Under the pieces are notes generated by a model. The model did no database searches and had not been told where the DNA came from. It worked only from the letters and a program-made list of their open reading frames with translations. The position numbers and the translations under genes were made by a program. DNA of 64,000 nucleotides from an uncultured Alphaproteobacteria bacterium (lineage in GTDB: Bacteria > Pseudomonadota > Alphaproteobacteria > HIMB59 > GCA-002718135). The first letter of the stretch is position 1; every line of letters starts with the position of its first letter. Positions 2,076 through 64,000 of this stretch are shown here, in pieces. The stretch spans positions 31,139 to 95,138 of the forward strand of contig CABXSY010000003.1 of the NCBI GenBank assembly GCA_902514875.1, given 5' to 3'.

Positions 2076-2183
2076 CTAATATTTCACTTAAAACTGGGAA
2101 ATATTACTATATGCATTTTTTGCATATTAATGTTAACGATTATAATCTTACTAAAAATTAATATTAAACTAAGTCAGTATTCA

Positions 2184-2234
2184 CGTTCATCACTCTTTTA
2201 GAGTGACGGAAGTAGACGAAAGTCGAAGGAACGC
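2184..2234 (+). ncRNA. Glutamine riboswitch aptamer (glnA RNA motif), copy 1a
   Basis: P1 CGTTC/GAACG; P2 TCACTC-TTTTA-GAGTGA; junction CGGAAGTA; P3 GAC-GAAA-GTC; E-loop AGTA/GAA; upstream of an amt gene. Confidence 0.88.
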
Positions 2235-2251
2235 ATGCAAAGTTATTAAAT

Positions 2252-2302
2252 CGTTCAATTTGTTGAAAGCAAATCGGAAGTAGGTTTAACCCGAAGGAAC
2301 GC
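2252..2302 (+). ncRNA. Glutamine riboswitch aptamer (glnA RNA motif), copy 1b (tandem)
   Basis: CGTTCA-ATTTG..CAAAT-CGGAAGTA-GG..CC-GAAGGAACGC, the same consensus as 1a with different stems. Confidence 0.85.
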
Positions 2303-2314
2303 GGATCTTATTAT

Positions 2315-2395
2315 TTAATTTCCATAGCTAAGCATGAAAAGTAACGCATGACTCAATGTGAGCCATGTACTGTGAAATTTATAATGGAGGATTAA
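2315..2395 (+). promoter_or_regulatory. Putative riboswitch expression platform: anti-SD tract, hairpin and RBS of amt1
   Basis: TTAATTTCCAT (2315-2325) can pair with ATGGAGGATTAA (2384-2395); intervening hairpin GCATGACTCA-ATG-TGAGCCATGT (2346-2368). Confidence 0.5.
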
Positions 2396-3681
2396 TGTTA
2401 AAAAAATCTATATATTTCATTAGCATTCTTGCTGTCTTTATGCTCTTCAGTTCATATGCAAGAGCCGAAGTAGACGGTGAAGTGCAATACATTTTAAATA
2501 CATTCCTATTTCTTGTATCTGGGTTCTTAGTCATGTGGATGGCAGCAGGATTTGCAATGCTTGAATCAGGACTTGTTACGTCTAAAAGTGTAGCAACAAT
2601 TGCTGCAAAAAATATAGGCTTATATTCGATAGCTGGTTTAATGTTTTGGTTAGTTGGATATAATATGGCATACGGCATTCCTGCAGGTGGCTTTATTGGA
2701 TCTCCAATTCCTTGGAGTGATGGTAGCTCTCTTGATACAGGTTATTCAGATGGTTCTGACTGGTTCTTTCAGATGGTATTTTGTGCAACAACTTGTTCAA
2801 TCGTATCTGGAACACTAGCTGAAAGAATCAAGATTTGGCCATTTTTTATTTTTTGTGCTTTATTAACTGGGTTCATTTATCCAATCGAAATGGGTTGGCA
2901 GTGGGGCGGAGGATACTTAGCGGAAGCAGGTTTCTCAGATTTTGCTGGTTCAACTCTAGTTCACAGTGCAGGAGCAGCCGCAGCACTTGCTGGTGCGATT
3001 TTGTTAGGCCCAAGACTGGGACGTTTTACTGATAGTGGTGAAGCAAGTCCAATGGAACCTTTTGCAAATTCTTCAATACCTCTTGCAACTCTTGGTGTAT
3101 TTATCCTGTGGCTTGGATGGTTCGGATTTAACGGTGGATCACAATTAGCTATGGGTACATTTGATGATGTTACTGCAGTAGCAACAATATATATCAATAC
3201 TAACTTGGCAGCTGGAGCAGGTGTAATGGCTTGTGCAGTAATCTCAAGATTAGCAACTGGTAAAACTGATGTTGTGATGATGCTTAATGGTGCATTAGGT
3301 GGTTTAGTAGCAATTACTGCAGAACCATTAGCTCCTTCCCCATTCTTAGCAGTAATCATTGGTGCTATAGGCGGATTAATTGTCTTCTACGGAACAAGAC
3401 TTTTAATTTCTTTTAAAATTGATGACGTTGTAGGAGCTATTCCAGTACACGGTTTTGCTGGAATTTTTGGAACATTAGTTGTTCCTATTTCAAATAGCGC
3501 AGCAAGTTTTGGTGCACAACTTTATGGGATAATAGCAATTAACGTTTTCGTTTTTGTTGTATCATTTATCATTTGGTACATCATGAAAATGCTGTTTGGT
3601 ATTAGAATCAGTGAAGAAGCTGAAAAACTTGGTACTGATAAATCTGAAGTAGGTGTAATGGCTTACAGCATCAGAGACTAA
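2395..3681 (+). CDS. amtB: Ammonium transporter (Amt family), paralogue 1
   Basis: FFQMVF, DFAGSTLVH, GWFGFNGGS, DDVVGAIPVHG (twin His kept); ATG 2395 follows GGAGG and is preferred over ORF-track start 2365. Confidence 0.95.
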   Translation: MLKKSIYFISILAVFMLFSSYARAEVDGEVQYILNTFLFLVSGFLVMWMAAGFAMLESGLVTSKSVATIAAKNIGLYSIAGLMFWLVGYNMAYGIPAGGFIGSPIPWSDGSSLDTGYSDGSDWFFQMVFCATTCSIVSGTLAERIKIWPFFIFCALLTGFIYPIEMGWQWGGGYLAEAGFSDFAGSTLVHSAGAAAALAGAILLGPRLGRFTDSGEASPMEPFANSSIPLATLGVFILWLGWFGFNGGSQLAMGTFDDVTAVATIYINTNLAAGAGVMACAVISRLATGKTDVVMMLNGALGGLVAITAEPLAPSPFLAVIIGAIGGLIVFYGTRLLISFKIDDVVGAIPVHGFAGIFGTLVVPISNSAASFGAQLYGIIAINVFVFVVSFIIWYIMKMLFGIRISEEAEKLGTDKSEVGVMAYSIRD

Positions 3682-3685
3682 TGAA

Positions 3686-3727
3686 TTTAGTGATTAGCAC
3701 ATCAACTCCTTATAGTTGGTCACTAAA
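3686..3727 (+). other. 3'-UTR stem-loop with C/U-rich loop
   Basis: TTTAGTGATTAGC pairs with GTTGGTCACTAAA (13 bp, 3 G-U); loop ACATCAACTCCTTATA. Confidence 0.5.
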
Positions 3728-3731
3728 AAAT

Positions 3732-3751
3732 GGGAGAGCATTTGCTCTCCC
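3732..3751. terminator. GC-rich hairpin, probable intrinsic terminator after amt1
   Basis: GGGAGAGC-ATTT-GCTCTCCC; A-tract before, AAATTTGTT after. Confidence 0.7.
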
Positions 3752-3780
3752 AAATTTGTTAAAACAAGTGGGAGGGTTAA

Positions 3781-4155
3781 ATGACTGAAACAGAAATTAT
3801 AAAAGAAAAAAAAAGAAACATCTATTCAAGTTTTTTTGCAGAAGATTACGTCTCAAAGTTTTTATTTAAATCAATATTACACCATGTTATTTCTCTAGAA
3901 ATATATGAAAATAACAAATTAAATGGAATTTCTTTTGAAACAATTTGTGCAAATGTACCTAAGTCAATTGGCTCTAGATCATCTATTCAATCGATTTTAA
4001 ACGAAGCATTAGAAAAAAATATTTTTGTTAAAGAACAAAATCAATCTGATAAACGGATTAAAAATTACTATTTAAGCAATAATTTTCTTGATAAGATAAA
4101 TGGATGGTTAAAAAAAGAGGGTACTTTTTTTAATAAAATGATTTTAGAAAATTAA
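3781..4155 (+). CDS. Putative winged-helix (MarR-like) DNA-binding protein
   Basis: 124 aa; SRSSIQSILNEA recognition-helix-like segment, then DKRIKNYYLS wing motif; RBS GGGAGGG. Confidence 0.55.
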   Translation: MTETEIIKEKKRNIYSSFFAEDYVSKFLFKSILHHVISLEIYENNKLNGISFETICANVPKSIGSRSSIQSILNEALEKNIFVKEQNQSDKRIKNYYLSNNFLDKINGWLKKEGTFFNKMILEN

Positions 4156-4188
4156 TTATATTTTAATAATTAAATTTAATACTATTTG

Positions 4189-4216
4189 TTGATACTTTTC
4201 GAATTATAGTTATAAC
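4189..4216 (+). promoter_or_regulatory. Putative sigma70 promoter for the amt2 leader
   Basis: TTGATA-N16-TATAAC ends about 6 nt before the duplicated leader block begins (4222). Confidence 0.4.
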
Positions 4217-4224
4217 TCTTATCA

Positions 4225-4275
4225 CGTTCATCACTGTTTTAGAGTGACGGAAGTAGACGAAAGTCGAAGGAACGC
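4225..4275 (+). ncRNA. Glutamine riboswitch aptamer (glnA RNA motif), copy 2a
   Basis: Identical to 2184-2234 except one base next to the P2 loop. Confidence 0.88.
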
Positions 4276-4292
4276 ATGCAAAGTTATTAAAT

Positions 4293-4342
4293 CGTTCAAT
4301 TTGCAGTTTGCAAATCGGAAGTAGGTATACCCGAAGGAACGC
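4293..4342 (+). ncRNA. Glutamine riboswitch aptamer (glnA RNA motif), copy 2b (tandem)
   Basis: CGTTCA-ATTTGCA-GTT-TGCAAAT-CGGAAGTA-GG..CC-GAAGGAACGC. Confidence 0.85.
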
Positions 4343-4354
4343 GGATCTTATTAA

Positions 4355-4430
4355 TTAATTTCCATAGCTAAGCATGAAGTAATGCATAACTAAAGGTTAG
4401 TTATGTATTTATAATTTTATATGGAGTTAA
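4355..4430 (+). promoter_or_regulatory. Putative riboswitch expression platform of amt2
   Basis: TTAATTTCCATA (4355-4366) can pair with TATGGAGTTAA (4420-4430); hairpin GCATAACTAA-AGG-TTAGTTATGT (4384-4406). Confidence 0.5.
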
Positions 4431-4433
4431 ATA

Positions 4434-5720
4434 ATGTATAAAAAATTTTTAAGTCTTTTTACAATTTTCTCTTTTATTTTGTTGTTAAGTTCAACTGTGA
4501 GAGCAGAGGTAGACGCTGAAGTAGCATATATATTTAATACATTCTCTTTTTTAGTATGTGGATTTTTAGTCATGTGGATGGCTGCAGGATTTCTATTTTT
4601 AGAATCAGGCCTTGTTACAACGAGAAGTGTATCAACTATTGCTGCTAAAAATATTGGAAAGTTCGCAATTGTTTCAATTGTTTTCTATTTAATTGGATAT
4701 AATCTTGGATATTCTGTCCCTGAAGGAGGCTATGTTGGAACACCATCTATATGGACTGATAATTCATCTATGGAAACAGGTTACTCAGATGCTTCAGACT
4801 GGTTTTTTCAAGCTTTATTTGTTTGTGCTACTGTTTCTATTGTATCTGGTGCTGTTGCAGAGCGAATAAAAATTTGGCCTTTCTTTACTTTTGCGGCAAT
4901 TCTTGGAGGAGTAATTTATCCAATTCAAATGGGTTGGGAATGGGGTGGAGGATGGTTAGACGCCCTAGGATTTGCAGATTTCGCTGGCTCAACATTAGTG
5001 CACGCTTGTGGTGGTTCTGCAGCTTTAGCAGGAGTAATTCTTTTAGGTCCAAGACTTGGAAGATTTAGTTCGAGTGGAGAACCAGCTAATATGGCTCCAT
5101 TTGCTCCATCATCAATTCCTTTAGTTACATTAGGAACATTTATTTTATGGATGGGTTGGTATGGTTTTAATGGCGGATCACAACTTGCATTAGGTTCTTA
5201 TGAAGATGCAACAGCAATGTCTAAAATTTTCATGAACACTCAACTTGCTGCTTGCGGTGGATGTATGGCTGGTGCAGCAATAACAAGATTAATTGGTGGA
5301 AAAACTGATATTGTCATGATGCTTAATGGAGCTCTGGCAGGTTTAGTGTCAATAACAGCTGAGCCATTAATGCCTAGTCCATTGCTTGCTATTGGAATAG
5401 GAGCAGTTGGTGGAGTAATAATGTATTATGGAACTAACTTCTTAAATTCATTAAAATTAGATGATGTTGTTGGGGCAATACCAGTACATATGTTTGCTGG
5501 TATTTGGGGAACATTGGTTGTCCCTTTAACTAATCCTGATGCATCATACTCAATTCAGTTATTAGGTGTTGGATCAGTGTGTATCTTTGTTTTTGTTTTC
5601 TCATATATTGTAATATATTTAATTAAAAATATTATGGGATTACGAATTAGTAAAGAAGCTGAAAAACTTGGAACTGATAAAGCTGAGGTTGGAGTCATAG
5701 CTTATTCAATAAGAGATTAA
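4434..5720 (+). CDS. amtB: Ammonium transporter (Amt family), paralogue 2
   Basis: DFAGSTLVH, GWYGFNGGS, DDVVGAIPVH; colinear with paralogue 1, same C-terminus AYSIRD. Confidence 0.95.
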   Translation: MYKKFLSLFTIFSFILLLSSTVRAEVDAEVAYIFNTFSFLVCGFLVMWMAAGFLFLESGLVTTRSVSTIAAKNIGKFAIVSIVFYLIGYNLGYSVPEGGYVGTPSIWTDNSSMETGYSDASDWFFQALFVCATVSIVSGAVAERIKIWPFFTFAAILGGVIYPIQMGWEWGGGWLDALGFADFAGSTLVHACGGSAALAGVILLGPRLGRFSSSGEPANMAPFAPSSIPLVTLGTFILWMGWYGFNGGSQLALGSYEDATAMSKIFMNTQLAACGGCMAGAAITRLIGGKTDIVMMLNGALAGLVSITAEPLMPSPLLAIGIGAVGGVIMYYGTNFLNSLKLDDVVGAIPVHMFAGIWGTLVVPLTNPDASYSIQLLGVGSVCIFVFVFSYIVIYLIKNIMGLRISKEAEKLGTDKAEVGVIAYSIRD

Positions 5721-12808: not shown

Positions 12809-13795
12809 ATGGAAGTAGATTTAGGGAAATGGTATCGAGCAAATATAGATAAAAAAGAATTCAAGAAGTTATGCAAGAAATCTGATTGGCAGGGTTTTAA
12901 GCATATGATTATTTATTTTTCATCTCTATTTGTTTTTGGATATCTTGCATATGTCACATGGGGCACTTGGTGGTCTTTATTATTTTTTATAATATACGGA
13001 AATATTTGGGGATGTAGTGATGCTATTTGGCATGAAACTGGTCACAGAACAGCTTTTAAATCTAAATTCTGGAATGATTTCTTTTATTACATTGCAAGTT
13101 TCATGGATAATTTCGAGCCTATAAGATGGAGATATTCTCATTATCATCATCACACTTATACCCAATTTAATGATCCTGTGGATTTTGAAATACATGTAAA
13201 AAAACCAACTGATTTAATTGTATTTTTCTCACACTACATTCCGTTCTCCGGTTTTGTTTTTTTTAAAAATTCTCTTCAATGGGAAACTATAAAACATGCA
13301 TTTGGTGTGACTACTGATGTAATGAAAGTTTGTATTCCTGAAAACGAAAGATGGAAATGTAGATTATCCGCTTGGAGTCATCTCTCTATTTGGATTATAA
13401 GTATTGCTTCTTCAGTATACTTTCAAAGCTGGCTTCCAGTTCTATTCGTTTTATTACCTAATTTTTATGGAAAGACACTCGTAATGCTAATGGGCCTTAC
13501 TCAACACGCAGGACTTAGAGAAGATAAAAGAGATCACAGGTATACAACCAGAACAGTATATTTAAATCCAGTTTTAAGTTTTTTATATTGGCATATGGAA
13601 TATCATGTTGAGCACCATATGTTCCCTCAAGTTCCTTCACATAATTTACCTAAACTACATGCTATGATTAAAGATCAATTACCACCTGCTAGAAAAGGAC
13701 TTATAGGGGCTTACAAAGAAATTGTTCCAGCACTAATAAAACAAGCAAAAAATCCAGACTATCAAATCCCATTGTCAGTTCCAAGTAACGCCTAA
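12809..13795 (+). CDS. mocD: Membrane di-iron fatty acid desaturase-family oxygenase, MocD-like
   Basis: His boxes HETGH, HYHHH, TQHAGL, HVEHH; adjacent to reductase and Rieske ferredoxin as in mocDEF. Confidence 0.8.
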   Translation: MEVDLGKWYRANIDKKEFKKLCKKSDWQGFKHMIIYFSSLFVFGYLAYVTWGTWWSLLFFIIYGNIWGCSDAIWHETGHRTAFKSKFWNDFFYYIASFMDNFEPIRWRYSHYHHHTYTQFNDPVDFEIHVKKPTDLIVFFSHYIPFSGFVFFKNSLQWETIKHAFGVTTDVMKVCIPENERWKCRLSAWSHLSIWIISIASSVYFQSWLPVLFVLLPNFYGKTLVMLMGLTQHAGLREDKRDHRYTTRTVYLNPVLSFLYWHMEYHVEHHMFPQVPSHNLPKLHAMIKDQLPPARKGLIGAYKEIVPALIKQAKNPDYQIPLSVPSNA

Positions 13796-13800
13796 ATTAA

Positions 13801-15030
13801 ATGAAAAATAACATTATAATTTTAGGCGGCGGTCAAGCTGCAATCTATGCTGCTAGAGAGGTTAGAAAAAATGATACAGATTCAAATATAAAAATATTAA
13901 GTGAAGAAAATTTATTACCATATGAAAGACCTCCTTTATCTAAAGATTTTTTGTTAAATAAAAAAAATGAGGATGATCTTTATTTTCATTCTAGCGACGT
14001 ACTAAAAAATGAAAATATAGATTTTGAAAATGTATTAATTAATAAAGTTGATTTTGAAAATAAAAAACTTTTTACAAAAAATGATGATGTTTACTCTTAT
14101 AATAGCCTATTAATTTCAACAGGTTCTGAAAATAAAAAGCTTAGTCTAGATAAAAATTTAAATGATGATATTTATTATTTAAGAAATTTAGAAGAAGCCA
14201 AAACTATTAAAGAAAAAATTTCAAATAAAAATAAAATAACTATTATTGGAGGTGGTTTCATTGGCTTAGAAATAGCTTCATCTATATCTCAGCTTAAAAA
14301 AAAAGTAACAGTTATCGAAATCGGTAATCAACTCATGGGAAGAATTATACCTAAACAAATTGCTGACCTGGTTCAAAAAACTCACATAGAGCATGGTAAT
14401 GATATAATATTAAATAAACAGATAGAAAAAATAAGTAAAAAAAATGATATTTATGAAATTTTATTAAATGATAATTCTTTAATAGAAACAGAATTTATAA
14501 TTGCTGGTATAGGATCAACTCCTTCTATAAAATTATTTGAAAATACAAATTTAAAACTTGATAATGGTATAGTAACCAATCAATATTGTGAAACTTCCAT
14601 TAAAGATGTTTATGCAGCAGGTGACGTATCTAATTTTTATCATCCATTATATGAAAGAAATATAAGACTTGAGTCTTATCAACATGCACAAAATCATGGA
14701 ATTTGTGCTGGAAAAAATATTGCTGGAGTAAAAACAGAATACTCTTCAGTTCCTTGGATGTGGTCTGATCAATTTAATTTAAATCTTCAACTGACCGGTA
14801 TTTGTGATGATTATGATGAAATGGTTGAAAGAGGTAATAATATTAATAATGGTGTAATTTATTTTTTTCTAAAAAATAAAATAATAAAAGGCGCATGTGG
14901 TTTAGGAATTGTAGGAAAAGTGGGTCGTGACATTAGAATAACTTCTAAATTAAGTGAGAAAAATACCATAGTAGATACACAAATTCTCTCAGATGAAACT
15001 CAAAAATTAAATAAACTTATACAAAAATAA
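13801..15030 (+). CDS. mocF: FAD/NAD(P)H ferredoxin reductase (MocF-like)
   Basis: GGGQAA, YERPPLSK, GGGFIGLE, AAGD, PWMWSDQ. Confidence 0.88.
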   Translation: MKNNIIILGGGQAAIYAAREVRKNDTDSNIKILSEENLLPYERPPLSKDFLLNKKNEDDLYFHSSDVLKNENIDFENVLINKVDFENKKLFTKNDDVYSYNSLLISTGSENKKLSLDKNLNDDIYYLRNLEEAKTIKEKISNKNKITIIGGGFIGLEIASSISQLKKKVTVIEIGNQLMGRIIPKQIADLVQKTHIEHGNDIILNKQIEKISKKNDIYEILLNDNSLIETEFIIAGIGSTPSIKLFENTNLKLDNGIVTNQYCETSIKDVYAAGDVSNFYHPLYERNIRLESYQHAQNHGICAGKNIAGVKTEYSSVPWMWSDQFNLNLQLTGICDDYDEMVERGNNINNGVIYFFLKNKIIKGACGLGIVGKVGRDIRITSKLSEKNTIVDTQILSDETQKLNKLIQK

Positions 15031-15082
15031 TAATTTGATTATTTAATATTTATTTTCAGAAAATAGACATTATATACAAATT

Positions 15083-15400
15083 ATGTCTGAAGAAAATTGG
15101 ATAGAAGTAGGCTCAACAGATAGTATTGAAGAAGAAGATCTTATTAGATTTGATCATCAAGATAAAACTTTTTGCGTATACAGATTAACAGATGGTTTTT
15201 ATGCAACTGATGGGATGTGTACACATGAAACAGTACATCTTGAAGATGGCCTGGTTATGGATGATGAAATCGAATGTCCAATGCATCAAGGTATTTTTAA
15301 TATTAAGTCTGGAGAAGCATTAAGCCCACCAGCTTGTGAGGATTTAAAAACATACCCAGTTAAAGTTGATAATGATAAAATATTCATTAAGATAGATTAA
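15083..15400 (+). CDS. mocE: Rieske [2Fe-2S] ferredoxin (MocE family)
   Basis: CTHE...CPMHQG (CxH/CxxH). Confidence 0.9.
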   Translation: MSEENWIEVGSTDSIEEEDLIRFDHQDKTFCVYRLTDGFYATDGMCTHETVHLEDGLVMDDEIECPMHQGIFNIKSGEALSPPACEDLKTYPVKVDNDKIFIKID

Positions 15401-15419
15401 ATATTTTTTTGGAGATTTT

Positions 15420-16247
15420 ATGAGTAGAAAAAAACTTACAGTTTACGATTATTTGCAATGCAAAGGTAAAAGACAATTAAGTGTTATGTTTGTACACAAT
15501 GCTGACGAAGCTGCAGCAGCTGAAGAAGCAGGTATTGACATGATATGTACTTCGCATGATGCTCCACAATTTGGTATTTATAATTCTTTTGATGAGCTGA
15601 AAAGAATTCGTGAGGCTGCACCAACTTGCTTTATGCAGTCCGGAGGTGCAGTAAGAGTAGCTTCTGAGTATGAAGCAATGAAGCTTTCACACAAGTATTT
15701 AGATATAGGCGCAGATGTAATCTATGGAGGTAATTGGAGTTACAAATGGATTAGAGCATTAAGAGACGAATATGTACCAATTAATAGTCATGTTGGATTA
15801 GTTCCAGGAAATGCCACTTGGATTGGTGGATTTGTTGCTCAAGGCAAAACTGCTGATAAAGCAATTAGAATTTTAGAACATACCCTTGAGTTACAAGAAG
15901 CAGGAGCTATTGGAGTTGAGCTCGAAGTAGTTCCACCGAAAGTTGCTGAAGTGATTACAAAAAAAGTTAATATTATGACTCTCTCAATGGGAAGTGGCTC
16001 TGGATGTGACGGACAATATTTATTTGCTAATGATGTTCTGGGATATACTCAGGGAAAAATTCCAAGACATGCACGTATTTATAGAGATTTTAAAAAAGAA
16101 TTTGCAAAACTACAAACTGAAAGAGTTAATGCATTCAAAGAGTTTCATGATGATACAGTAAACAAAAAATTTAATGATCCTAAAATCACAGTTAATATCG
16201 ATGATGGTGAATTTGACAAATTTTTAAAGCTTTCAGAAAAATTTTGA
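15420..16247 (+). CDS. Divergent PanB-like (ketopantoate hydroxymethyltransferase family) protein 1
   Basis: HVGLVP..W.GGF..QGKT, LEVVP, MGSGSGCDGQ, D.LG, PRHA match the PanB C-terminal half; N-terminal GDS and D-x-PF motifs absent. Confidence 0.8.
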   Translation: MSRKKLTVYDYLQCKGKRQLSVMFVHNADEAAAAEEAGIDMICTSHDAPQFGIYNSFDELKRIREAAPTCFMQSGGAVRVASEYEAMKLSHKYLDIGADVIYGGNWSYKWIRALRDEYVPINSHVGLVPGNATWIGGFVAQGKTADKAIRILEHTLELQEAGAIGVELEVVPPKVAEVITKKVNIMTLSMGSGSGCDGQYLFANDVLGYTQGKIPRHARIYRDFKKEFAKLQTERVNAFKEFHDDTVNKKFNDPKITVNIDDGEFDKFLKLSEKF

Positions 16248-16250
16248 TCA

Positions 16251-17264
16251 ATGTTTGCAGGCGAAGTTGATTTAAATACTTGGTATAAACCAAAAATAGA
16301 TAAGAAAAAGTTAAAGGAACTTTCTAAGAGATCTGATTCAAAAGGTTTAATTGATATATCTGTATTTATTGTTGCTCTACTATTAAGCGGATATCTTTGT
16401 GTTGTAAGTTGGGGTACTTTTTGGTCAATTCCTGCTCTTCTACTTTATGGAAACATTTTCTATTGTAAAATCATTAGCATTCAACATGAAACAAATCACG
16501 AAACATATTTTAAAACAAGAGTGTTAAATAAATTTTTTTATCATATAACTTCTTTGCTTGGTGGTTTTGAAGCAGTTCGATGGAAGTGGAGTCATTTTCA
16601 TCACCATACCTACACAATTTTTACTCATGAGGAAGTATATGATTATGAAAATAATAGTCCTAAACCTACAGAACCTATTAGATTTCTTTTAAATTTTTTA
16701 CCTCTGGGTCCTTTAATTAATATTCAAAAAATAAGACATTTTACACATTTTGAAATAATCAAACATTCATTTGGAATAATTACTGCTGTTGTAAATATTA
16801 CTGTACCTGAAAAAGAGATAAAAAAAATTATTAATAGCTCAAGATTATATGTTGTTTTTTGGCTAATCATTATTGCATCCTCAATTCTTTTTAAAACCTG
16901 GTTGCCAATAATAATGTTAATTCTGCCTCCATTTTATGGAAATACTATTTTAATGATTTGTGGAATGACACAACATGCAGGATTAGCTGACAATGTTAAA
17001 GATCATAGAAAAAGTACAAGAACAGTAATCATGAATCCTTTTTTCAGTTTTTTGTATTCGAATATGGAATATCATATTGAGCATCACATCTTTCCAAAAA
17101 TTCCTTGTCATAACCTCAAAGCTTTTCACCAAGTAGTTAAAGATCAAATGCCAACTCCAAGAAAAGGTGTAATAAATGCTTACAAAGAAATTATTCCTGC
17201 TATTTTTAAACAAGCAAAAGATAAAAATTATTATTTGAATGTTGAGGTACCAAGTACTAACTAG
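16251..17264 (+). CDS. Membrane di-iron fatty acid desaturase-family oxygenase, MocD-like paralogue 2
   Basis: HETNH, HFHHH, TQHAGL, HIEHH; colinear with 12809-13795. Confidence 0.82.
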   Translation: MFAGEVDLNTWYKPKIDKKKLKELSKRSDSKGLIDISVFIVALLLSGYLCVVSWGTFWSIPALLLYGNIFYCKIISIQHETNHETYFKTRVLNKFFYHITSLLGGFEAVRWKWSHFHHHTYTIFTHEEVYDYENNSPKPTEPIRFLLNFLPLGPLINIQKIRHFTHFEIIKHSFGIITAVVNITVPEKEIKKIINSSRLYVVFWLIIIASSILFKTWLPIIMLILPPFYGNTILMICGMTQHAGLADNVKDHRKSTRTVIMNPFFSFLYSNMEYHIEHHIFPKIPCHNLKAFHQVVKDQMPTPRKGVINAYKEIIPAIFKQAKDKNYYLNVEVPSTN

Positions 17265-17266
17265 TT

Positions 17267-18100
17267 ATGAGAAAAAAAATAACTGTTAAGGACTTACAAA
17301 GTTTTAAAGGTAAAAAAAAATTAGTTTGTATATTAATTAAAAACGAAGAAGAAGCATTAGCAGCTGATAAGGTTGGTTTTGAGATGCTTGCAACTGGTTT
17401 AGCAGGTAAGTACAAAAATGATGATGACCATCCTAATTTTGATCAATTAGTTAAAATGAGAGAGGCTGCTCCTACTGCATTCATGCACTGTGGCGCTCCC
17501 GACAGTTTTATACCAACAATTGATGAAGCTAAAAAATTTTCATTTAAAATATTAGAGCATGGTTTTGATATGCTTTATTGTAATACACGTTTTGATTTAA
17601 TAGGAGAATTATTCAAAGAAGGAATTCCTTGTTTAGGCCATGTTGGTCTGGTCCCACCCAAACGAACTTGGACTGGAGGATTTGTAGCAGTAGGCAAAAC
17701 AGCAAAAGAAGCTATGTGGATTTATGATCAGTGTTTAAAAATTCAAGATGCTGGAGGGGTTGCTATAGAAATGGAGTGTGTGCCATATAAAATTGCAGAG
17801 GTTATTTCAAAAAAAGTGGAACCAACAGTTATGTCAATGGGAAGTGGGTCTGGATGCGACGTGGAATACGTTTTCGGATGCGACATATTAGGAACTACGA
17901 AGGGTAAAATACCTCGACATGCAAAAAAATATAGGGATTTTCAACAAGAATTTGCAAGACTTCAAAAAGAAAGAGAGTCTGCCTTTAAAGAATTTTATGA
18001 TGATGTTCATACTGGTGCTTTTCCTGAGAAAAAAAATATTGTAGAAATTAATGAAAATGAACTAGATATATTTTTAAATAAATTAGAAAAAAGAGGATAG
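17267..18100 (+). CDS. Divergent PanB-like protein 2
   Basis: GHVGLVPP, MECVP, MGSGSGCD, PRHA; paralogue of 15420-16247. Confidence 0.8.
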   Translation: MRKKITVKDLQSFKGKKKLVCILIKNEEEALAADKVGFEMLATGLAGKYKNDDDHPNFDQLVKMREAAPTAFMHCGAPDSFIPTIDEAKKFSFKILEHGFDMLYCNTRFDLIGELFKEGIPCLGHVGLVPPKRTWTGGFVAVGKTAKEAMWIYDQCLKIQDAGGVAIEMECVPYKIAEVISKKVEPTVMSMGSGSGCDVEYVFGCDILGTTKGKIPRHAKKYRDFQQEFARLQKERESAFKEFYDDVHTGAFPEKKNIVEINENELDIFLNKLEKRG

Positions 18101-57965: not shown

Positions 57966-58111
57966 GGTTAGAGCTACAAAATGCAATAATTTTTATTTTT
58001 CTTTAAATACTGTTAAATTTTAATTGTAAATATTTACTAAATTTGATCTACACTAAATTTTAATTAAGGTTGGTCAAAACCCTTGTAAAAAAAAGGCTTC
58101 GTAAAAATATT

Positions 58112-61100
58112 ATGAGAGTCTTTATTACTTTAATTATAACAACTTTTTATTCCTGCTTTGTATTGGCTGAGCTGCCAGGTGGTAACGCAACTATTGCAGG
58201 CGATATTACTATTACCTCCAATGATCAGTCGATGACCATACAGCAACAATCGGATCAAGCCATTATTGAATGGAATAGTTTTAATATCGGAGAAAATAAT
58301 ACCGTTACCTTTGATCAACCATCATCAAGTTCTAGTGCACTTAATAGAGTTGTCTCCGGCAATCCTACCACACTGGCAGGATCTTTGAATGCGAATGGTA
58401 AGGTATATGTTGTCAATGAAAACGGTGTCTACTTTACACCAACTTCAACAATCAATGCACATTCGTTTGCTGCCTCCACGCTTGCTCTCTCCAATGATAA
58501 TTTTCTCAATAATATTTTTTCTTTTACCTCATCTAATCAATCATCCCTTCAATCCATTATTAATAAAGGATCGATCACGACATTAGATGGAGGCTTCACT
58601 GCTCTACTTGGTGGTGCGATCGACAATGAGGGCACCATTAATGCGAACCTTGGAAAAGTGGGTCTTGGTGCAGGAAAAGAAATGACGTTAGACTTGAGCG
58701 GGGATAAATTTTTACAAGTAGCAGTGCCAATAGATGCGGCAACAACATTACTTGATCATGAAGGTGATACTCTTCATACTTTAATCAGTCATAGTGGCTC
58801 AACAAAGGGAAACACTATAGAGTTAGATGTTGGAACAGCTAAAAATATTTTATCTAATGCAATCAATATTCCTGGCTCGTTGATTGCGAATAAAGCTGAA
58901 CAACAAAAGGGGAAAATTATTTTATCAGGAAGTGGAACTATTAAAATCGATGGATTTCTTAAAGCACCATCAACAGGGGACATTAATATTACCAGTGATA
59001 CTCTTTCTCTTGGTGGAACAATAGATGTATCAGATGATTTACCGGGGAGCATTACAATTACGAGTAAAGGAGAACTTAGTGTTTCTGGATCTATTCTAGC
59101 TGACTCTCAAAACAATACTGGTGGTGCAATAGAACTTACATCACCGTCTATCATGCAAATGGATAAAAGTCTTATTTCCGCTAATGGCACAAATGGAGGA
59201 TCAATAGCATTATCAGGTAATACGATTATTTCCTCAGGTACACTGTTATCAAATGGGAGTACGGCTAAGGGTGGTCGCATTGATATAGAAGGAACAAATT
59301 TTATTCGACTTCTATCATCGGATATTACTGCCTCAGGCTCACAACAAGGAGGGCTTGTACGCATAGGAGGTGCCTTTCAAGGAGGATATGATCTCACTAG
59401 AACAAATGAGCAAGAAGAAACATTTGTAACAAGGTGGGGAAATGTACCAACAATGGAAAATGTTAACACACTTTTTATTAACGATGGATCAACCCTCAAT
59501 ATTGAATCAGATCATACACCTGGCACACTGATTTTGTGGAGTGATCAAGAGACAACCATGTTAGGGCATATTAATGCAATGGGACTTCAAGGAGGTTCAG
59601 TAGAAATTTCATCAAAAGATACTCTTCGTTATTTAGGCTTACAAAATATCAAGATGGTAGAGGGTGGTCATCTTCTTCTTGATCCAAAAAATATTATCAT
59701 CAGTGATACTGCTGGATCACAAAGTTGGTCTTTACAAGGTGTGATTGGTTTTGATTATACCGGCAGTAAGGACTTTGATTTTAATAATACTGTTGCTGCT
59801 GATTCTTTTCGGGCAGCAACTATGTCAAACGGCGCCAATCGAGGTTATGGAGCTGGTGTCTCTATAAGTGGTAATGGAAAAAATTTAGCTTTAGTAGCAA
59901 GAGAAGATGTTAATGATGCTCATTTTGACTCTGATCTTGGTAGAATCTTACTTTTTACTTTTGATGACACAAATTTTAGTAATGCAACATTAAGAGGACA
60001 ATTTGTTTATAATGCAAGTGGCAGCAATAATCTCGATACTGGAGGTGATAAAATACGTCATGTTGCCCTTGATCAAGATGGTGATCGATTAGTTTACACT
60101 GTTGATGGAATTTATAACTTGAATGGTTATATAAGCGGGACTATTAATGGTACGGCAGTTAGTACTCATCATAGAGCTTTTGCTCGAACTATAAAATTTG
60201 ATGATACAAATTTTACTAACCCTCAACGTGTTGGGGTAATTGGTGCTTTTACAGGTGCTGCAGGATATGGGAATAGTCCAACAGTATTATCAAATGATCT
60301 TGATCTGTACGCTAATTCTATTAATCAAAACTATCCTAAATATTCTCCAGATGTTGAACTTAATGCAGATGGTTCACGAATGGCATTAAGCTATATGGAT
60401 TACGATCAGGGTGGTGACGCAATACACTTAATTTCTTTTAGTGATACAAATTTCTCTTCACCATCTCTTACAGGAAGAATAGGTGGAGATTACACTGGAG
60501 TTAAAGATTTAGATTTGTCCTCTGATGCAGCAATTAGTCAAAATCGTATATTAAGCGGCCAGGTTGGTTTTGGATGGGATATAGAATTATCAAGTGATGC
60601 AACAAAATTGGTAGCACTTTATAATTCTAAAAATGAATCTTCTTCCAGTGGTAGACATAAAAGTATTCATCTTTTTACTTTCTCTGATGGAAATTTCTCC
60701 AATCCAACTTATGTAGGCGCAATTACATCTGATGATGATATTAGTACAAGTTATCAAACTGGTAGTAAAACAGATACTGGGTATACGTATAATAATAATA
60801 AAATATTAGAGGATTTTGATTGGGGGCAGTACGGTGAATATGGTTGTTACGCCTATTCATGTTCTCATGCTAGCATTGGAAAAATAACGAGTTCCGCCTA
60901 TGGATCATCTATTCATCAGATTAAAATAGCTTTAAGTGGTGATGGTACTCGTTTAGTTATTAGTGGTCGTGGATCTGATGATGATAGTGGACTGTATCTA
61001 ATAGGTTTTTCAGATTCTAATTTTGGCAACCCTGAAGTAAAACAAATAATAAATCCAGGTATTTTTAAAACATCAGATAGTTCTTATGGAGATCAATACG

Positions 61101-62206
61101 TAGGAGGATCTATGTCTTTGGATGATACTGGTAAACTGTTAGTTATAGGCACACCTGGAGATAATGGTTTTAATAATGATGCTGCTACTAATTCTGATAA
61201 TAATGATTATGGTGCTGCACTTTTACTGAAAGAAAATATTTTATCAGGGGGGTATTCGTATACAGACTCGTCAAGCGATGATGTGATTATTAATACAACA
61301 GAATTAAAAAATCTTCTTGATGCAAATGTGAATGTGACGTTGCAAGCAAATAGTGATATTACTGTTAACTCAGCCATTACAACAACTGGTACAGGAACAT
61401 TAAGTCTGCATGCTGGACGTGATGTTGATATTAATAAGTCGATTAGTACTTCTGGTAATTTAGCTATTATTGCGAGTGACACATCAAGTAATAACGTGGT
61501 GGGTGCGCAGCGTGATAGTGGGACCGGTGATATTTTAGCAGCCTATGAAAGTGATGGGACGACGGCGATTAGTTTAACGGCGAGCGATCTTGATATAACA
61601 TTAAATAATGGAAGCGGTGTTACAAATGCTAGTATGGGGAATATTGAACTTGCTACCATTACGGCTACAACAGGAACACTACAATCAGCAAACTTTAGTG
61701 CGTCAGGAGCTGGCGTTAGTGATAAAACCTATGATGGTAATACCTCGGCGACTGTTTCTACTACTGGTTCTGTTTCAGGATTAACGTTAGTTGGTAGTGA
61801 TCTATCATTGGTGAATACAGCAAGTTTTACATCGTCAACTGCTGGATCTGCAAAAGATGCAACAGTGGATTATGATCTTAGTGGCTATTTAAGTAGTGCT
61901 ATGGATGTAACAGATACAAGCAGCACTGCTATTACCGAGAGTGTCACAGCTGCAATCACTGAAGCTAGTTCTAGCAGTTCATCAAGTAGCAATTCAAATA
62001 ATTCTTCAGAAGAAAATAATATTGCTGCAGTGACTAGTAGGGATCAAAGAGATATTGTGGAAAACATGATTGGAGACATTAACAAAATTGTTCCTTTCGT
62101 ATCTGTAGACGCTATAGTTGGCTCCACTATGTCCCTTCAATTAGCAAGAGAAGCCAACATACAATCCGCTCCAAACGCTGAAGGTTTAGGTATTCAAAGT
62201 CTATAA
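58112..62206 (+). CDS. Filamentous-haemagglutinin N-terminal (TPS-type) domain exoprotein with beta-helix, propeller-like repeats and YDG domain
   Basis: Signal peptide; LPGG..G, IIEWNSFNIG, FDQP, LNRV, NENG; Gly-rich GG.I.I repeats; LLLDP; KTYDG; Ser-rich tail; ATG 58112 preferred over TTG 58070. Confidence 0.85.
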   Translation: MRVFITLIITTFYSCFVLAELPGGNATIAGDITITSNDQSMTIQQQSDQAIIEWNSFNIGENNTVTFDQPSSSSSALNRVVSGNPTTLAGSLNANGKVYVVNENGVYFTPTSTINAHSFAASTLALSNDNFLNNIFSFTSSNQSSLQSIINKGSITTLDGGFTALLGGAIDNEGTINANLGKVGLGAGKEMTLDLSGDKFLQVAVPIDAATTLLDHEGDTLHTLISHSGSTKGNTIELDVGTAKNILSNAINIPGSLIANKAEQQKGKIILSGSGTIKIDGFLKAPSTGDINITSDTLSLGGTIDVSDDLPGSITITSKGELSVSGSILADSQNNTGGAIELTSPSIMQMDKSLISANGTNGGSIALSGNTIISSGTLLSNGSTAKGGRIDIEGTNFIRLLSSDITASGSQQGGLVRIGGAFQGGYDLTRTNEQEETFVTRWGNVPTMENVNTLFINDGSTLNIESDHTPGTLILWSDQETTMLGHINAMGLQGGSVEISSKDTLRYLGLQNIKMVEGGHLLLDPKNIIISDTAGSQSWSLQGVIGFDYTGSKDFDFNNTVAADSFRAATMSNGANRGYGAGVSISGNGKNLALVAREDVNDAHFDSDLGRILLFTFDDTNFSNATLRGQFVYNASGSNNLDTGGDKIRHVALDQDGDRLVYTVDGIYNLNGYISGTINGTAVSTHHRAFARTIKFDDTNFTNPQRVGVIGAFTGAAGYGNSPTVLSNDLDLYANSINQNYPKYSPDVELNADGSRMALSYMDYDQGGDAIHLISFSDTNFSSPSLTGRIGGDYTGVKDLDLSSDAAISQNRILSGQVGFGWDIELSSDATKLVALYNSKNESSSSGRHKSIHLFTFSDGNFSNPTYVGAITSDDDISTSYQTGSKTDTGYTYNNNKILEDFDWGQYGEYGCYAYSCSHASIGKITSSAYGSSIHQIKIALSGDGTRLVISGRGSDDDSGLYLIGFSDSNFGNPEVKQIINPGIFKTSDSSYGDQYVGGSMSLDDTGKLLVIGTPGDNGFNNDAATNSDNNDYGAALLLKENILSGGYSYTDSSSDDVIINTTELKNLLDANVNVTLQANSDITVNSAITTTGTGTLSLHAGRDVDINKSISTSGNLAIIASDTSSNNVVGAQRDSGTGDILAAYESDGTTAISLTASDLDITLNNGSGVTNASMGNIELATITATTGTLQSANFSASGAGVSDKTYDGNTSATVSTTGSVSGLTLVGSDLSLVNTASFTSSTAGSAKDATVDYDLSGYLSSAMDVTDTSSTAITESVTAAITEASSSSSSSSNSNNSSEENNIAAVTSRDQRDIVENMIGDINKIVPFVSVDAIVGSTMSLQLAREANIQSAPNAEGLGIQSL
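59840..61230 (+). repeat. Intragenic ~80-aa protein repeats (F-[SD]-D-x-N-F-x-[NS]-[PA] core with LS.DG/FG-GAP-like elements)
   Basis: LFTFDDTNFSNA, IKFDDTNFTNP, LISFSDTNFSSP, LFTFSDGNFSNP, LIGFSDSNFGNP at about 59951, 60191, 60428, 60671 and 60998. Confidence 0.7.
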
Positions 62207-62212
62207 GCATTT

Positions 62213-64000
62213 ATGAAAAATGCTTTTATTTTTCTTCTCACTTTTCTCTTTTTAGAAACACAATTTGTTTACGCTGCCTCTCTTCCAAGTGGGGAAAATG
62301 TTATCTCTGGTGATATTTCGATCAGTTCATCACAAAACTCCATGACGATTACCCAGTCTTCTGAACAATCAATTATTGAATGGACGAGTTTTGATATTGG
62401 CGCGCAAAATAGTGTAACTTTTAATCAACCTTCTATTAATGCAAGCGCTCTAAATAGAGTTGTTTCAGGAAATCCAACAAAGCTTGCGGGGGCATTAAAT
62501 GCGAATGGTAAAGTTTTTGTTGTGAATGAAAACGGTGTCTACTTTACACCCACGTCAACGATCAATGCGCATTCCTTTGCTGCATCAACGCTGGCTCTCT
62601 CCAATGATGATTTTTTCAATAATAAATTTTTATTTAAAGCAGATAATGTAAATAATATTTTTTCTTCTATTATTCATAAAGGTTCTATTACTACTTTGGA
62701 TGGAGGTTTTACTGCTCTCTTAGGTGGTGCCATTGATAGTGAAGGTACTATTAATGCTAATCTTGGTAAAATTGGAATAGGGGCTGGAAAAGAAATTACG
62801 TTAGACTTGAGTGGTGATAAATTTTTACAAGTAAGCATTCCATTTAGTGAAGCGATAACGTTACTCGATCAAAATACAGAAGAATTGAATACCATTATCA
62901 ATCATGCAGGAACATCAATGGCAAATAGAATAGACATTGAAGTTGGTGCTGCCAAAAATGTTGTTCAGCGCGCTGTCAATATTCCAGGTAATCTTGTTGC
63001 AACAACTGCCTCACAAAAAAATGGCGTCATTACCCTTGGGGGTGCAGGTGATATTGTCGTTGCAGGAAATTTAACAGCCAAAGAAAATGGTAAAATTAAC
63101 GCAGAAGGTAATTTTTTATCTTTTGGTGGTAAAGTTGATGTGTCAGGTGCAAATGCAGGAACAATAAATTTTAATAGTACAGGTGAAATATCTTTAGGTG
63201 GAACTCTAAATGCTTCTTCCTCTACTAATGCTGGTGGTAAAATTGATATTCAATCTGATTATAAAATTATTCAAAGTCATGGCAGTGAAATTAATACATC
63301 AGGACATACTAAGGGTGGTAATATTCTAGTATCAGCACCAAACATTATGTCTTCAGGCTCCATGTCTTCAAAAGGCAGTCAACAAGGTGGTTTCATTGAT
63401 ATAGAGTCTGAAGGTTACATTCGTTTATTATCTACTGATATTAATGTAGCAGGTAATACTAATGGAGGGTTAGTTCGTATCGGGGGAGAATTTCAGGGTA
63501 ATAATAATTTAACCAGAACTACCCAGCAACAAGATGTTTTTATTGATAGGTGGGGTGAAAGAAGATCACTTGTTAACGCAAAAACTATTTTAATATCAGA
63601 TGGATCGAATATTGATATTTCCTCTTCTAATGGCAATGCAGGTACAGCAATCATTTGGAGTGACAGAGAAACGACTATGCTTGGTAATATTGATGCAACA
63701 GGCATAACAGGTGGTGCTGTTGAGATTTCCTCTAAAGACACATTACGACATGTTGGATTATCAAACGTCAATATATCAGAGGGTGGACAATTATTACTTG
63801 ATCCAAAAAATATTACTGTTGGAACGGGTGTAACGTCTCAAAACTGGGTTCATAAAGGCTTAATCGGAAAGGATTATGCCGTTGTATCATCAACCAATGT
63901 CGGGGAGCCTAAACTAACTAGAGGTGGAAATTTTGGATCTGATATAGCAATCAGTGATGATGCAACTTTAATGGCTGTGGGTGCTAGAGAAGGTGGAGCG
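62213..64000 (+). CDS. Second filamentous-haemagglutinin N-terminal domain exoprotein, 3'-truncated by window edge (absent from ORF track)
   Basis: ATG 62213 gives MKNAFIFLLTFLFLETQFVYAASLPSG...IIEWTSFDIG...LNRVVSGNPT...VVNENGVYFTPTST; same frame at window end (FGSDIAISDDATLMAVGAREGGA). Confidence 0.88.
   Translation, partial: MKNAFIFLLTFLFLETQFVYAASLPSGENVISGDISISSSQNSMTITQSSEQSIIEWTSFDIGAQNSVTFNQPSINASALNRVVSGNPTKLAGALNANGKVFVVNENGVYFTPTSTINAHSFAASTLALSNDDFFNNKFLFKADNVNNIFSSIIHKGSITTLDGGFTALLGGAIDSEGTINANLGKIGIGAGKEITLDLSGDKFLQVSIPFSEAITLLDQNTEELNTIINHAGTSMANRIDIEVGAAKNVVQRAVNIPGNLVATTASQKNGVITLGGAGDIVVAGNLTAKENGKINAEGNFLSFGGKVDVSGANAGTINFNSTGEISLGGTLNASSSTNAGGKIDIQSDYKIIQSHGSEINTSGHTKGGNILVSAPNIMSSGSMSSKGSQQGGFIDIESEGYIRLLSTDINVAGNTNGGLVRIGGEFQGNNNLTRTTQQQDVFIDRWGERRSLVNAKTILISDGSNIDISSSNGNAGTAIIWSDRETTMLGNIDATGITGGAVEISSKDTLRHVGLSNVNISEGGQLLLDPKNITVGTGVTSQNWVHKGLIGKDYAVVSSTNVGEPKLTRGGNFGSDIAISDDATLMAVGAREGGA

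Follow-up and report, generated by a model that had tools for sequence, protein, structure and literature searches.

Tandem glutamine aptamers ahead of two ammonium transporter genes

The 64,000-nt stretch analysed here (hereafter the window), a part of contig CABXSY010000003.1 from an uncultured alphaproteobacterium of the order HIMB59, carries two genes for ammonium transporters, amt1 and amt2, each with a 5' leader of about 215 nt that contains a tandem pair of glutamine riboswitch aptamers. When the full window was searched with cmscan against Rfam 15, exactly four matches exceeded the gathering score, all of them to RF01739 (Glutamine riboswitch; 55.4-63.2 bits against a gathering score of 35), on the plus strand and over the full model (1-53), and no other Rfam family passed its gathering score in the window. 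The first-pass annotation, made from the sequence alone, had proposed two tandem pairs of glnA-RNA (glutamine-I) aptamers upstream of amt genes, at 2184-2302 and 4225-4342; these spans and its motif string agree with the covariance-model matches, and the downstream open reading frames (ORFs) match PF00909. One pair of aptamers stands ahead of each amt gene. The coordinates are given in Table 1.

In each leader the two aptamers are 12 nt apart and are followed by a single platform and a single Shine-Dalgarno (SD) sequence per gene. The two leaders are near-identical over a stretch that starts at the first aptamer and runs on for about 45 nt past the second, despite a protein identity of only 65% between Amt1 and Amt2. 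An alignment of 103 unique tandem leaders was used to examine conservation. The three-helix junction (P1, P2 and P3) is built around CGGAAGUA / GAAGGAACG, which in aptamer 1a appear as CGGAAGUA ... GAAGGAACG, and this core was invariant in all 103 leaders. P2 and P3 of both aptamers covaried with two-sided changes, and P1 was invariant. The sequence GAACG-C 3' of both aptamers was found in 103/103 leaders, so that the C directly after P1 is present as the class expects; by analogy this C is probably the linchpin of a long-range G-C pair here too. The identity of the aptamers and their host context are close to certain as judged from sequence, and we infer that they bind L-glutamine.

The GGAGG at 2386-2390 lies four bases ahead of the ATG at 2395. 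Since the start chosen by the ORF finder (ATG 2365) falls within a leader hairpin and alternates between ATG and GTG in relatives, ATG 2395 is the likely start of amt1. In two relatives (L154, L149, 800-959) the loops of aptamer 2 in the amt2 leader have the sequences usual for the amt1 leader, so that gene conversion may now and then have taken place between the leaders.

Table 1. Features of the amt locus (positions in the window)
Feature	Position	Strand	Evidence and remarks
Promoter-like site TTTGCA-16-TATAAT, leader 1	2119-2146	+	about 35 nt 5' of aptamer 1a; consensus scan 10/12; candidate only
Aptamer 1a (glutamine)	2182-2237	+	RF01739, 63.2 bits, E 1.3e-11; P1 = 2184-2188/2229-2233
Inter-aptamer linker, leader 1, CAUGC-AA-AGUUAU-UAAAU	2234-2251	+	proposed 5' strand of helix with 3' element
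Aptamer 2a (glutamine)	2250-2305	+	RF01739, 58.1 bits; P1 = 2252-2256/2297-2301
3' element, leader 1	2302-2336	+	CGGAUC 2302-2307; anti-SD UUAAUUUCCAU 2315-2325; AUAGCU-AA-GCAUG 2324-2336
Variable hairpin, leader 1, between 3' element and SD	2347-2367	+	covariation
SD region AUGGAGGAUUA and likely true amt1 start, ATG 2395-2397	2384-2397	+	read from sequence
amt1, ammonium transporter, marine subtype	2395-3681	+	PF00909 E 7e-98; TIGR03644 574 bits (cut-off 514)
Terminator-like GC hairpin 3' of amt1	3731-3752	+	nine pairs, six of them G-C
ORF124 (124 aa), between the amt units	3781-4155	+	no family over threshold; weak winged-helix matches
Promoter-like site, leader 2	4143-4170	+	consensus scan 9/12; not above chance
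Aptamer 1b (glutamine)	4223-4278	+	RF01739, 63.2 bits; P1 = 4225-4229/4270-4274
Inter-aptamer linker, leader 2	4275-4292	+	CAUGC 4275-4279; AGUUAU 4282-4287
Aptamer 2b (glutamine)	4291-4345	+	RF01739, 55.4 bits; P1 = 4293-4297/4337-4341
3' element, leader 2	4342-4376	+	CGGAUC 4342-4347; AAUUUCC 4357-4363; AUAGCU 4364-4369; GCAUG 4372-4376
Variable hairpin, leader 2, CAUAACUAA / UUAGUUAUG	4385-4405	+	compensatory differences from leader 1
SD region AUGGAGUUAAAUA and amt2 start codon 4434-4436	4421-4436	+	read from sequence; complementary to anti-SD of 3' element
amt2, ammonium transporter, marine subtype	4434-5720	+	PF00909 E 1.9e-95; TIGR03644 533 bits (cut-off 514)

Host lineage and distribution of RF01739

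The host assembly comprises 1.27 Mb in 54 contigs and is 78% complete with 0.09% contamination. The closest named relatives of its Amt proteins come from marine single amplified genomes (SAGs) labelled 'uncultured Alphaproteobacteria' (98% and 82% identity), followed by 'Pelagibacteraceae' (about 70%) and then by more distant alphaproteobacteria. The size of the genome and these relatives bear out the earlier assignment of the window to a streamlined, non-cyanobacterial alphaproteobacterium. The GTDB order HIMB59 (AEGEAN-169, formerly SAR11 subclade V) is reported to consist of the families HIMB59 and GCA-002718135 [PMC10734472], and the host order was likewise represented by just two families in the genome collection used here.

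RF01739 was detected in 68/69 genomes of the window's genus and in 9/10 genomes from other genera of its family, that is, in 77/79 genomes of the family compared with 0/71 of the sister family. A wider search took one genome per family for 150 other families in the class; a single genome was positive, and it had a single aptamer. A second lineage, formed by relatives of a 'SAR116'-labelled SAG, had RF01739 in 8/41 genomes with one tandem pair each. The motif was not found in three named Pelagibacter-type genomes (0/3). Of 80 loci that surround homologues of Amt in named records, two showed the glnA-RNA pattern, and an Rfam scan of the first 20 of these loci found RF01739 in two. It had been expected that typical Pelagibacter amt leaders would carry the motif, and the counts of 2/80 loci and 0/3 genomes did not bear this out. 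RF01739 was reported in 2025 from SAR86 and from a Pelagibacter-labelled metagenome-assembled genome [PMC12379486].

The host genome contains six aptamers in three tandem pairs. The third pair lies on another contig (9088-9215, minus strand) within a spacer of about 250 nt between glnB (113 aa) and glnA (476 aa); it has the same linker as the amt leaders, a variant 3' element, GAUUUCAUAACUAGAGCAUGA, and a different hairpin before the SD sequence. Across the genus, tandem pairs precede four classes of gene, namely amt1, amt2, glnA and a gene with circularly permuted (CP) ATP-grasp domains (PF14403/PF04174), here called the CP-ATP-grasp gene. The CP-ATP-grasp leaders are tandem in the genus (L092-L097, L100-L109, L116-L117 and L119), and one from another alphaproteobacterial family (L132) has a single aptamer. 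One subtype of the CP-ATP-grasp leader contains a possible upstream ORF of 20 codons that overlaps the main start in UGAUG. A third, divergent Amt paralog (about 31% identical, starting MTLEELNVF; L091 and L180-L182) is preceded by a single aptamer without a 3' element, and its leaders contain a U/C-rich stretch, for example UACUUCC, with complementarity to the aptamer core GGAAGUA as well as to the SD sequence. Neither a riboswitch-linked third amt nor a riboswitch-linked CP-ATP-grasp gene was found in the 78%-complete host genome. These sequence data point to a small glutamine regulon, which would consist of amt1, amt2 and glnA in the host, with the third amt and the CP-ATP-grasp gene added in relatives.

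Protein regulators of nitrogen metabolism

The first-pass annotation had suggested that RNA-level nitrogen sensing takes the place of protein regulators in this organism. Regulator genes were counted in one draw of 60 relatives, 36 from the window's genus and 24 from the sister family. In the same draw RF01739 was present in 35/36 genomes of the genus and in 0/24 of the sister family. The GlnD domain PF08335 was found in 0/36 genomes of the genus and not in the host genome itself, compared with 24/24 in the sister family, and GlnE (PF03710) in 0/36 and not in the host genome, compared with 22/24. For sigma-54 (PF04552) no match exceeded the cut-off in 61 genomes of both families, with one weak sub-threshold match in the genus set. 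PII was encoded once in 28/36 genomes of the genus, was lacking in eight and was never present in two copies, whereas the sister family had two copies in 20/24 genomes and one in four. The riboswitch and the GlnD/GlnK/GlnE protein network were thus mutually exclusive between the two families sampled.

The genomic context of PII differed in the same way. In a complete genome of the sister family, a gap of 9 nt separates glnK from amt and one of 44 nt separates glnB from glnA; the latter pair is accompanied by a convergent GlnE gene, and there is no riboswitch. The gene set of the sister family (two PII genes, glnD and glnK-amt) agrees with that published for strain HIMB59 (Smith et al. 2013) [PMC3870248]; this agreement and the two-family structure of the order would place the window in the family GCA-002718135. 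The PII of the window's genus, at most one per genome, does not adjoin amt. In the host it is of glnB type (113 aa; PF00543, E 1.1e-33) and is located directly 5' of the third riboswitch pair and glnA. Its T-loop is unusual for PII: GFGRQRGSTGG(I/M)D..D.YDDEF was found in all 14 distinct sequences of the genus and exceeds the usual length by one residue; members of the genus differ in the central part of the loop but keep the Tyr, and the T-loop of the sister-family GlnB is canonical. On sequence grounds the altered T-loop is consistent with a loss of GlnD, GlnE and GlnK, the usual partners of PII. In addition, an NtrX-like response regulator and a histidine kinase are encoded in the host genome (398.8 bits, below the strict cut-off of the model at 600).

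The idea of RNA in place of protein regulators therefore held in part. In its favour are the counts for GlnD and GlnE (0/36), the lack of a second PII and the presence of RF01739 in 35/36 genomes; on the other side, an NtrX-like regulator, a kinase and a single PII whose T-loop is altered are still encoded. Among the regulators glnB, glnK, glnD and ntrBC, glnB was present, glnD, a second PII and sigma-54 were not found, and the only related regulator was the NtrX-like one. The genus genomes are incomplete (55-89% in the draw used for GlnD, 55-96% across two draws), so each absence is to be read as not found in the genomes searched. However, 36 independent misses of GlnD and GlnE are hard to ascribe to assembly gaps, and the window's family appears, from these genomes, to be without GlnD, GlnE and GlnK.

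Conserved linker and 3' element

Two further segments of the leaders were conserved outside the aptamers. In the linker between the aptamers, CAUGC was invariant in 103/103 leaders and AGUUAU nearly so, and two internal-loop positions varied. Downstream of the second aptamer, the 3' element had the consensus CGGAUC...UUAAUUUCC-AUAGCU-(AA)-GCAUGA with an invariant core, irrespective of the downstream gene; in glnA leaders it read GAUUUC-AUAACU-(AGA)-GCAUGA. The linker and the 3' element are common to the amt1, amt2, glnA and CP-ATP-grasp leaders of the family and to the second lineage. The linker is complementary to AUAGCU and GCAUG of the 3' element, and its helix with 2324-2336, which would enclose aptamer 2, was obtained with RNAalifold and in the single-sequence minimum free energy and centroid folds. 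The head of the 3' element, CGGA, can pair with the UCC of the same element. Furthermore, UUAAUUUCCAU is complementary to the SD regions of both amt genes over 10-11 pairs despite the different flanks of the two SD sequences; in leader 1 the SD region and 2315-2325 form 11 pairs, including two G.U pairs, with one bulge.

The variable hairpin that follows the 3' element was supported by changes on both sides in 5/8 pairs. Taken jointly, two helices of the tested structure had 93% of cells paired, compared with 37-50% when the partner columns were slid by 1-3 positions.

Proposed translational control by glutamine

A model in which glutamine switches off translation is proposed for the amt leaders. 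At low glutamine, AUAGCU..GCAUG of the 3' element would pair with the linker after aptamer 1, and UCC of the 3' element with the CGGA head after aptamer 2; the SD sequence would be free and Amt would be made. When glutamine is bound, the nucleotide just 3' of each P1 would be drawn into the aptamer fold and the attached helices would melt, so that the released UUAAUUUCCAU could pair with AUGGAGG..UUA(A) and translation would be shut off. Since one mask strand would be held by both aptamers, both would probably need to be occupied, which would give a steep response. The melting step follows the published account of glutamine binding, in which a long-range G-C pair is formed with the C just 3' of P1 and a short P1-attached helix melts [PMC6212724, citing Ren 2015]. 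In the amt leaders the P1-attached helices hold the anti-SD strand and not the SD sequence itself, and for this reason melting would release the mask and produce an OFF switch. An OFF switch also fits the physiology, as amt and glnA should both fall at high glutamine, and negative regulation of glnA by the riboswitch has been called 'reasonable' (Klahn 2018) [PMC6212724].

To model the effect of melting, pairing was forbidden for the four nucleotides that follow each P1. Of 14 amt leaders treated in this way, 12 became less accessible at the SD sequence, including leader 1 (0.60 to 0.22) and leader 2 (0.15 to 0.02) of the window. Of the other two, one was near-unchanged (0.27 to 0.23) and one had its SD sequence mis-assigned. 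In single-aptamer leaders, SD accessibility was lost on formation of the aptamer in 3/3 cases.

Several results weigh against this model. Neither the linker helix nor the anti-SD helix showed a two-sided compensatory change in the covariation tests, because their arms hardly vary: the arms of the linker helix were fixed or had one-sided changes only (U.G to U-A, A-U to G.U), the second lineage included. Both pairings are thus proposals drawn from the alignment, and the conservation could have another cause. The fourth pair between the head and UCC (GGAA with UUCC in seven unique heads, GGAU with AUCC in eight, GGAA with AUCC in none and a U.U mismatch in 21) did not form a significant pattern, and the fold of the whole leader was no more stable than that of shuffled sequences (z -0.72). 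When the aptamers were merely enforced, the two leaders of the window were unchanged and SD accessibility went up in many relatives. As plain enforcing gave no consistent change, the OFF result depends on the melting assumption taken from the literature; the five glnA leaders modelled did not respond under that assumption. Contigs from metatranscriptome-labelled runs bridge leader and coding sequence at 2217-2562, 2301-2687, 4258-4582 and 4341-4663, which counts in favour of the model, as does the lack of a called plus-strand terminator in either leader; this RNA evidence consists of contigs only, one run being probably DNA, from which transcript ends and levels cannot be read. Positions 3836-4207 had no contig cover in four runs, which does not show that the stretch is silent.

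The direction of the switch, the binding of the ligand and any cooperativity are accordingly presumed rather than observed features of the model. With moderate confidence we favour the full statement, namely glutamine aptamers in this host context that turn translation off by SD masking. More tentatively, and with rather less confidence than an even chance, the aptamers, linker and 3' element might together form a two-input inverter acting on amt1, amt2, the third amt, glnA and the CP-ATP-grasp operon, by which RNA might have replaced the whole GlnD-GlnK-GlnE layer and left PII free for another role.

Other possible modes of control

The leaders could instead act as ON switches. Glutamine would then stabilise P1 and the stacked linker helix, the anti-SD strand would be tied up, and Amt, for example a low-affinity or efflux form, would be made when nitrogen is plentiful. 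This agrees with the result of merely enforcing the aptamers, by which the mean SD accessibility of 20 tandem leaders rose from 0.29 to 0.46. The only glutamine riboswitch reported as tested in vivo is an ON switch [PMC6212724], and in Pelagibacter one Amt was seen only in nitrogen-replete cells, for which an RNA activator was proposed [PMC3870248]. However, the Pelagibacter genomes searched here were without RF01739 (0/3), so that precedent would concern another RNA. The glnA leaders also have this linker and 3' element, and for glnA a rise in expression with glutamine would be hard to reconcile with physiology. A different arrangement was found in L190-L192, leaders from relatives of the SAR116-labelled SAG, which have tandem aptamers with a 9-nt linker, an ORF for a basic peptide of 36-38 aa and then a terminator hairpin; there the anti-SD sequence CACCU stands directly after P1 and faces AGGUG of the SD sequence of the peptide gene. 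The amt leaders insert an extra complementary strand, as in an inverter, and we consider an ON switch unlikely for them.

Alternatively, control might lie in the elongation or the stability of the transcript, with Rho-dependent termination in the long AU-rich leader or access of RNases to it, and the 3' element would be a site for a protein or an RNase. The linker and the 3' element are invariant without covariation, as a sequence-specific site would be, and the glnA leaders share the 3' element but have no modelled SD effect. On the other hand, no U-tract follows the variable hairpin and no intrinsic terminator was called on the plus strand in either leader, the metatranscriptome-labelled contigs run from the leader into the coding sequence, and the SD complementarity of 10-11 pairs is kept in both leaders despite different SD flanks. 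This mode of control is regarded as improbable.

Finally, the view that the contig is a chimera or contains contaminating cyanobacterial DNA, or that the aptamers are decaying relics, could appeal to the first description of RF01739 mainly from cyanobacteria; nothing in the data supports it, and it is refuted as far as sequence can show, since an oxidoreductase gene and ORF124 flank the leaders in 30/31 relatives' loci, the motif is present throughout the genus (68/69), the nearest Amt relatives are alphaproteobacterial, GC content is 31-39% throughout (31% overall and 36-39% in the amt genes), all four aptamers are far over the cut-off and their core positions are invariant in 103 leaders.

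Other features of the window

The upstream oxidoreductase gene and ORF124 were the neighbours kept in 30/31 loci of relatives, and this synteny gave no sign of a chimera when the soundness of the contig was examined. The weak matches of ORF124 were to SarA/Rot (E 0.04) and to the N-terminal domain of MsvR (E 5e-4). A single-sequence AlphaFold2 (AF2) model was of low confidence (pLDDT 56.8) and had the order helix-helix-strand-helix-helix-strand-strand-helix; from these hints ORF124 may be a small winged-helix DNA-binding protein and a regulator of the amt locus. Promoter-like sites in the region were not more numerous than in shuffled sequences.

The housekeeping genes named in the first-pass annotation were present, including LytB/ispH, an APH-type kinase, RNase H, ATP synthase A, B and B', SMC, a thioredoxin-like protein and MutY. 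A fatty-acid desaturase gene followed by a ketopantoate-hydroxymethyltransferase-like gene was found twice within 12809-18100 on the plus strand (12809-13795 with 15420-16247, and 16251-17264 with 17267-18100), and a fatty-acid hydroxylase gene comes next. Two adjacent large ORFs on the plus strand, 58070-62206 (1378 aa) and 62213-64000 (>595 aa, running past the end of the window), each open with a two-partner secretion (TPS) domain and are an unexpected bulk in a genome so small.

Relation to known systems and significance

Tandem glnA RNA motifs in marine metagenomes were reportedly treated by Ames and Breaker in 2011. Such RNAs had been described before amt, glnA, PII and GOGAT (glutamate synthase) genes in marine metagenomes, with the taxa given as 'Cyanobacteria, marine' (Weinberg et al. 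2010) [PMC2864571]. The associations were later described as restricted to environmental sequences (Bolay et al. 2018) [PMC6316151], and both the taxonomic affiliation of the carriers and the effect of glutamine as unknown (Klahn et al. 2018) [PMC6212724]. The novelty claimed in the first-pass annotation was thus overstated, as the motif was published in 2010 together with its tandem form and its association with amt and glnA [PMC2864571]. The window, which has the same Rfam family, tandem arrangement and gene associations, almost certainly represents an assembled copy of those metagenomic reads. The reads were hostless; the present analysis allows a description of the lineage of the host, of its full regulon and of a conserved output platform.

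In the Synechocystis gifB leader, which controls a glutamine-synthetase inactivating factor, a P1-attached helix masks the ribosome-binding site and the single aptamer is therefore an ON switch (Klahn et al. 2018) [PMC6212724]. The amt leaders share with it the aptamer class and, as proposed, translational control through a strand 3' of P1; they differ in having two aptamers, an extra complementary strand (the proposed inverter, giving OFF) and direct control of amt and glnA. L190-L192 are gifB-like in the facing of anti-SD and SD sequences after P1, and resemble the ON-type switch found in cyanobacteria upstream of the small inactivating factors of glutamine synthetase. In the tandem glycine riboswitch, two like aptamers with a conserved joining sequence serve one expression platform. 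That layout is shared by the leaders studied here, with another ligand and fold, and the inter-domain helix, which in the glycine tandem runs from leader to linker, would here run from the linker to the 3' tail. The GlnD/GlnK-AmtB/GlnE network of the sister family has the same task, namely to sense glutamine and to restrain ammonium uptake as well as glutamine synthetase; it acts on protein activity after translation, whereas the RNA presumably acts on synthesis.

In the literature searched, supplements aside, no paper was found that places these RNAs in HIMB59/AEGEAN-169 or gives an account of the linker and the 3' element, and the word 'riboswitch' does not occur in two HIMB59/AEGEAN-169 papers. 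What is new is hence the host, the phyletic pattern of replacement and the hypothesis for the output platform; the riboswitch class was already known. Both cultured strains of the order are reported to belong to the other family [PMC10734472], so that in-vitro or heterologous systems are needed for tests.

The metagenomic copies of the tandem glutamine riboswitch can thereby be given a host, a single family within a lineage that is very abundant in the ocean, and the output part of the riboswitch gains an explicit model that can be mutated. With the RNA present where the protein glutamine sensors are missing, and none where they are present, the two families would offer a clean natural case in which a protein layer of control was exchanged for an RNA layer during genome streamlining.

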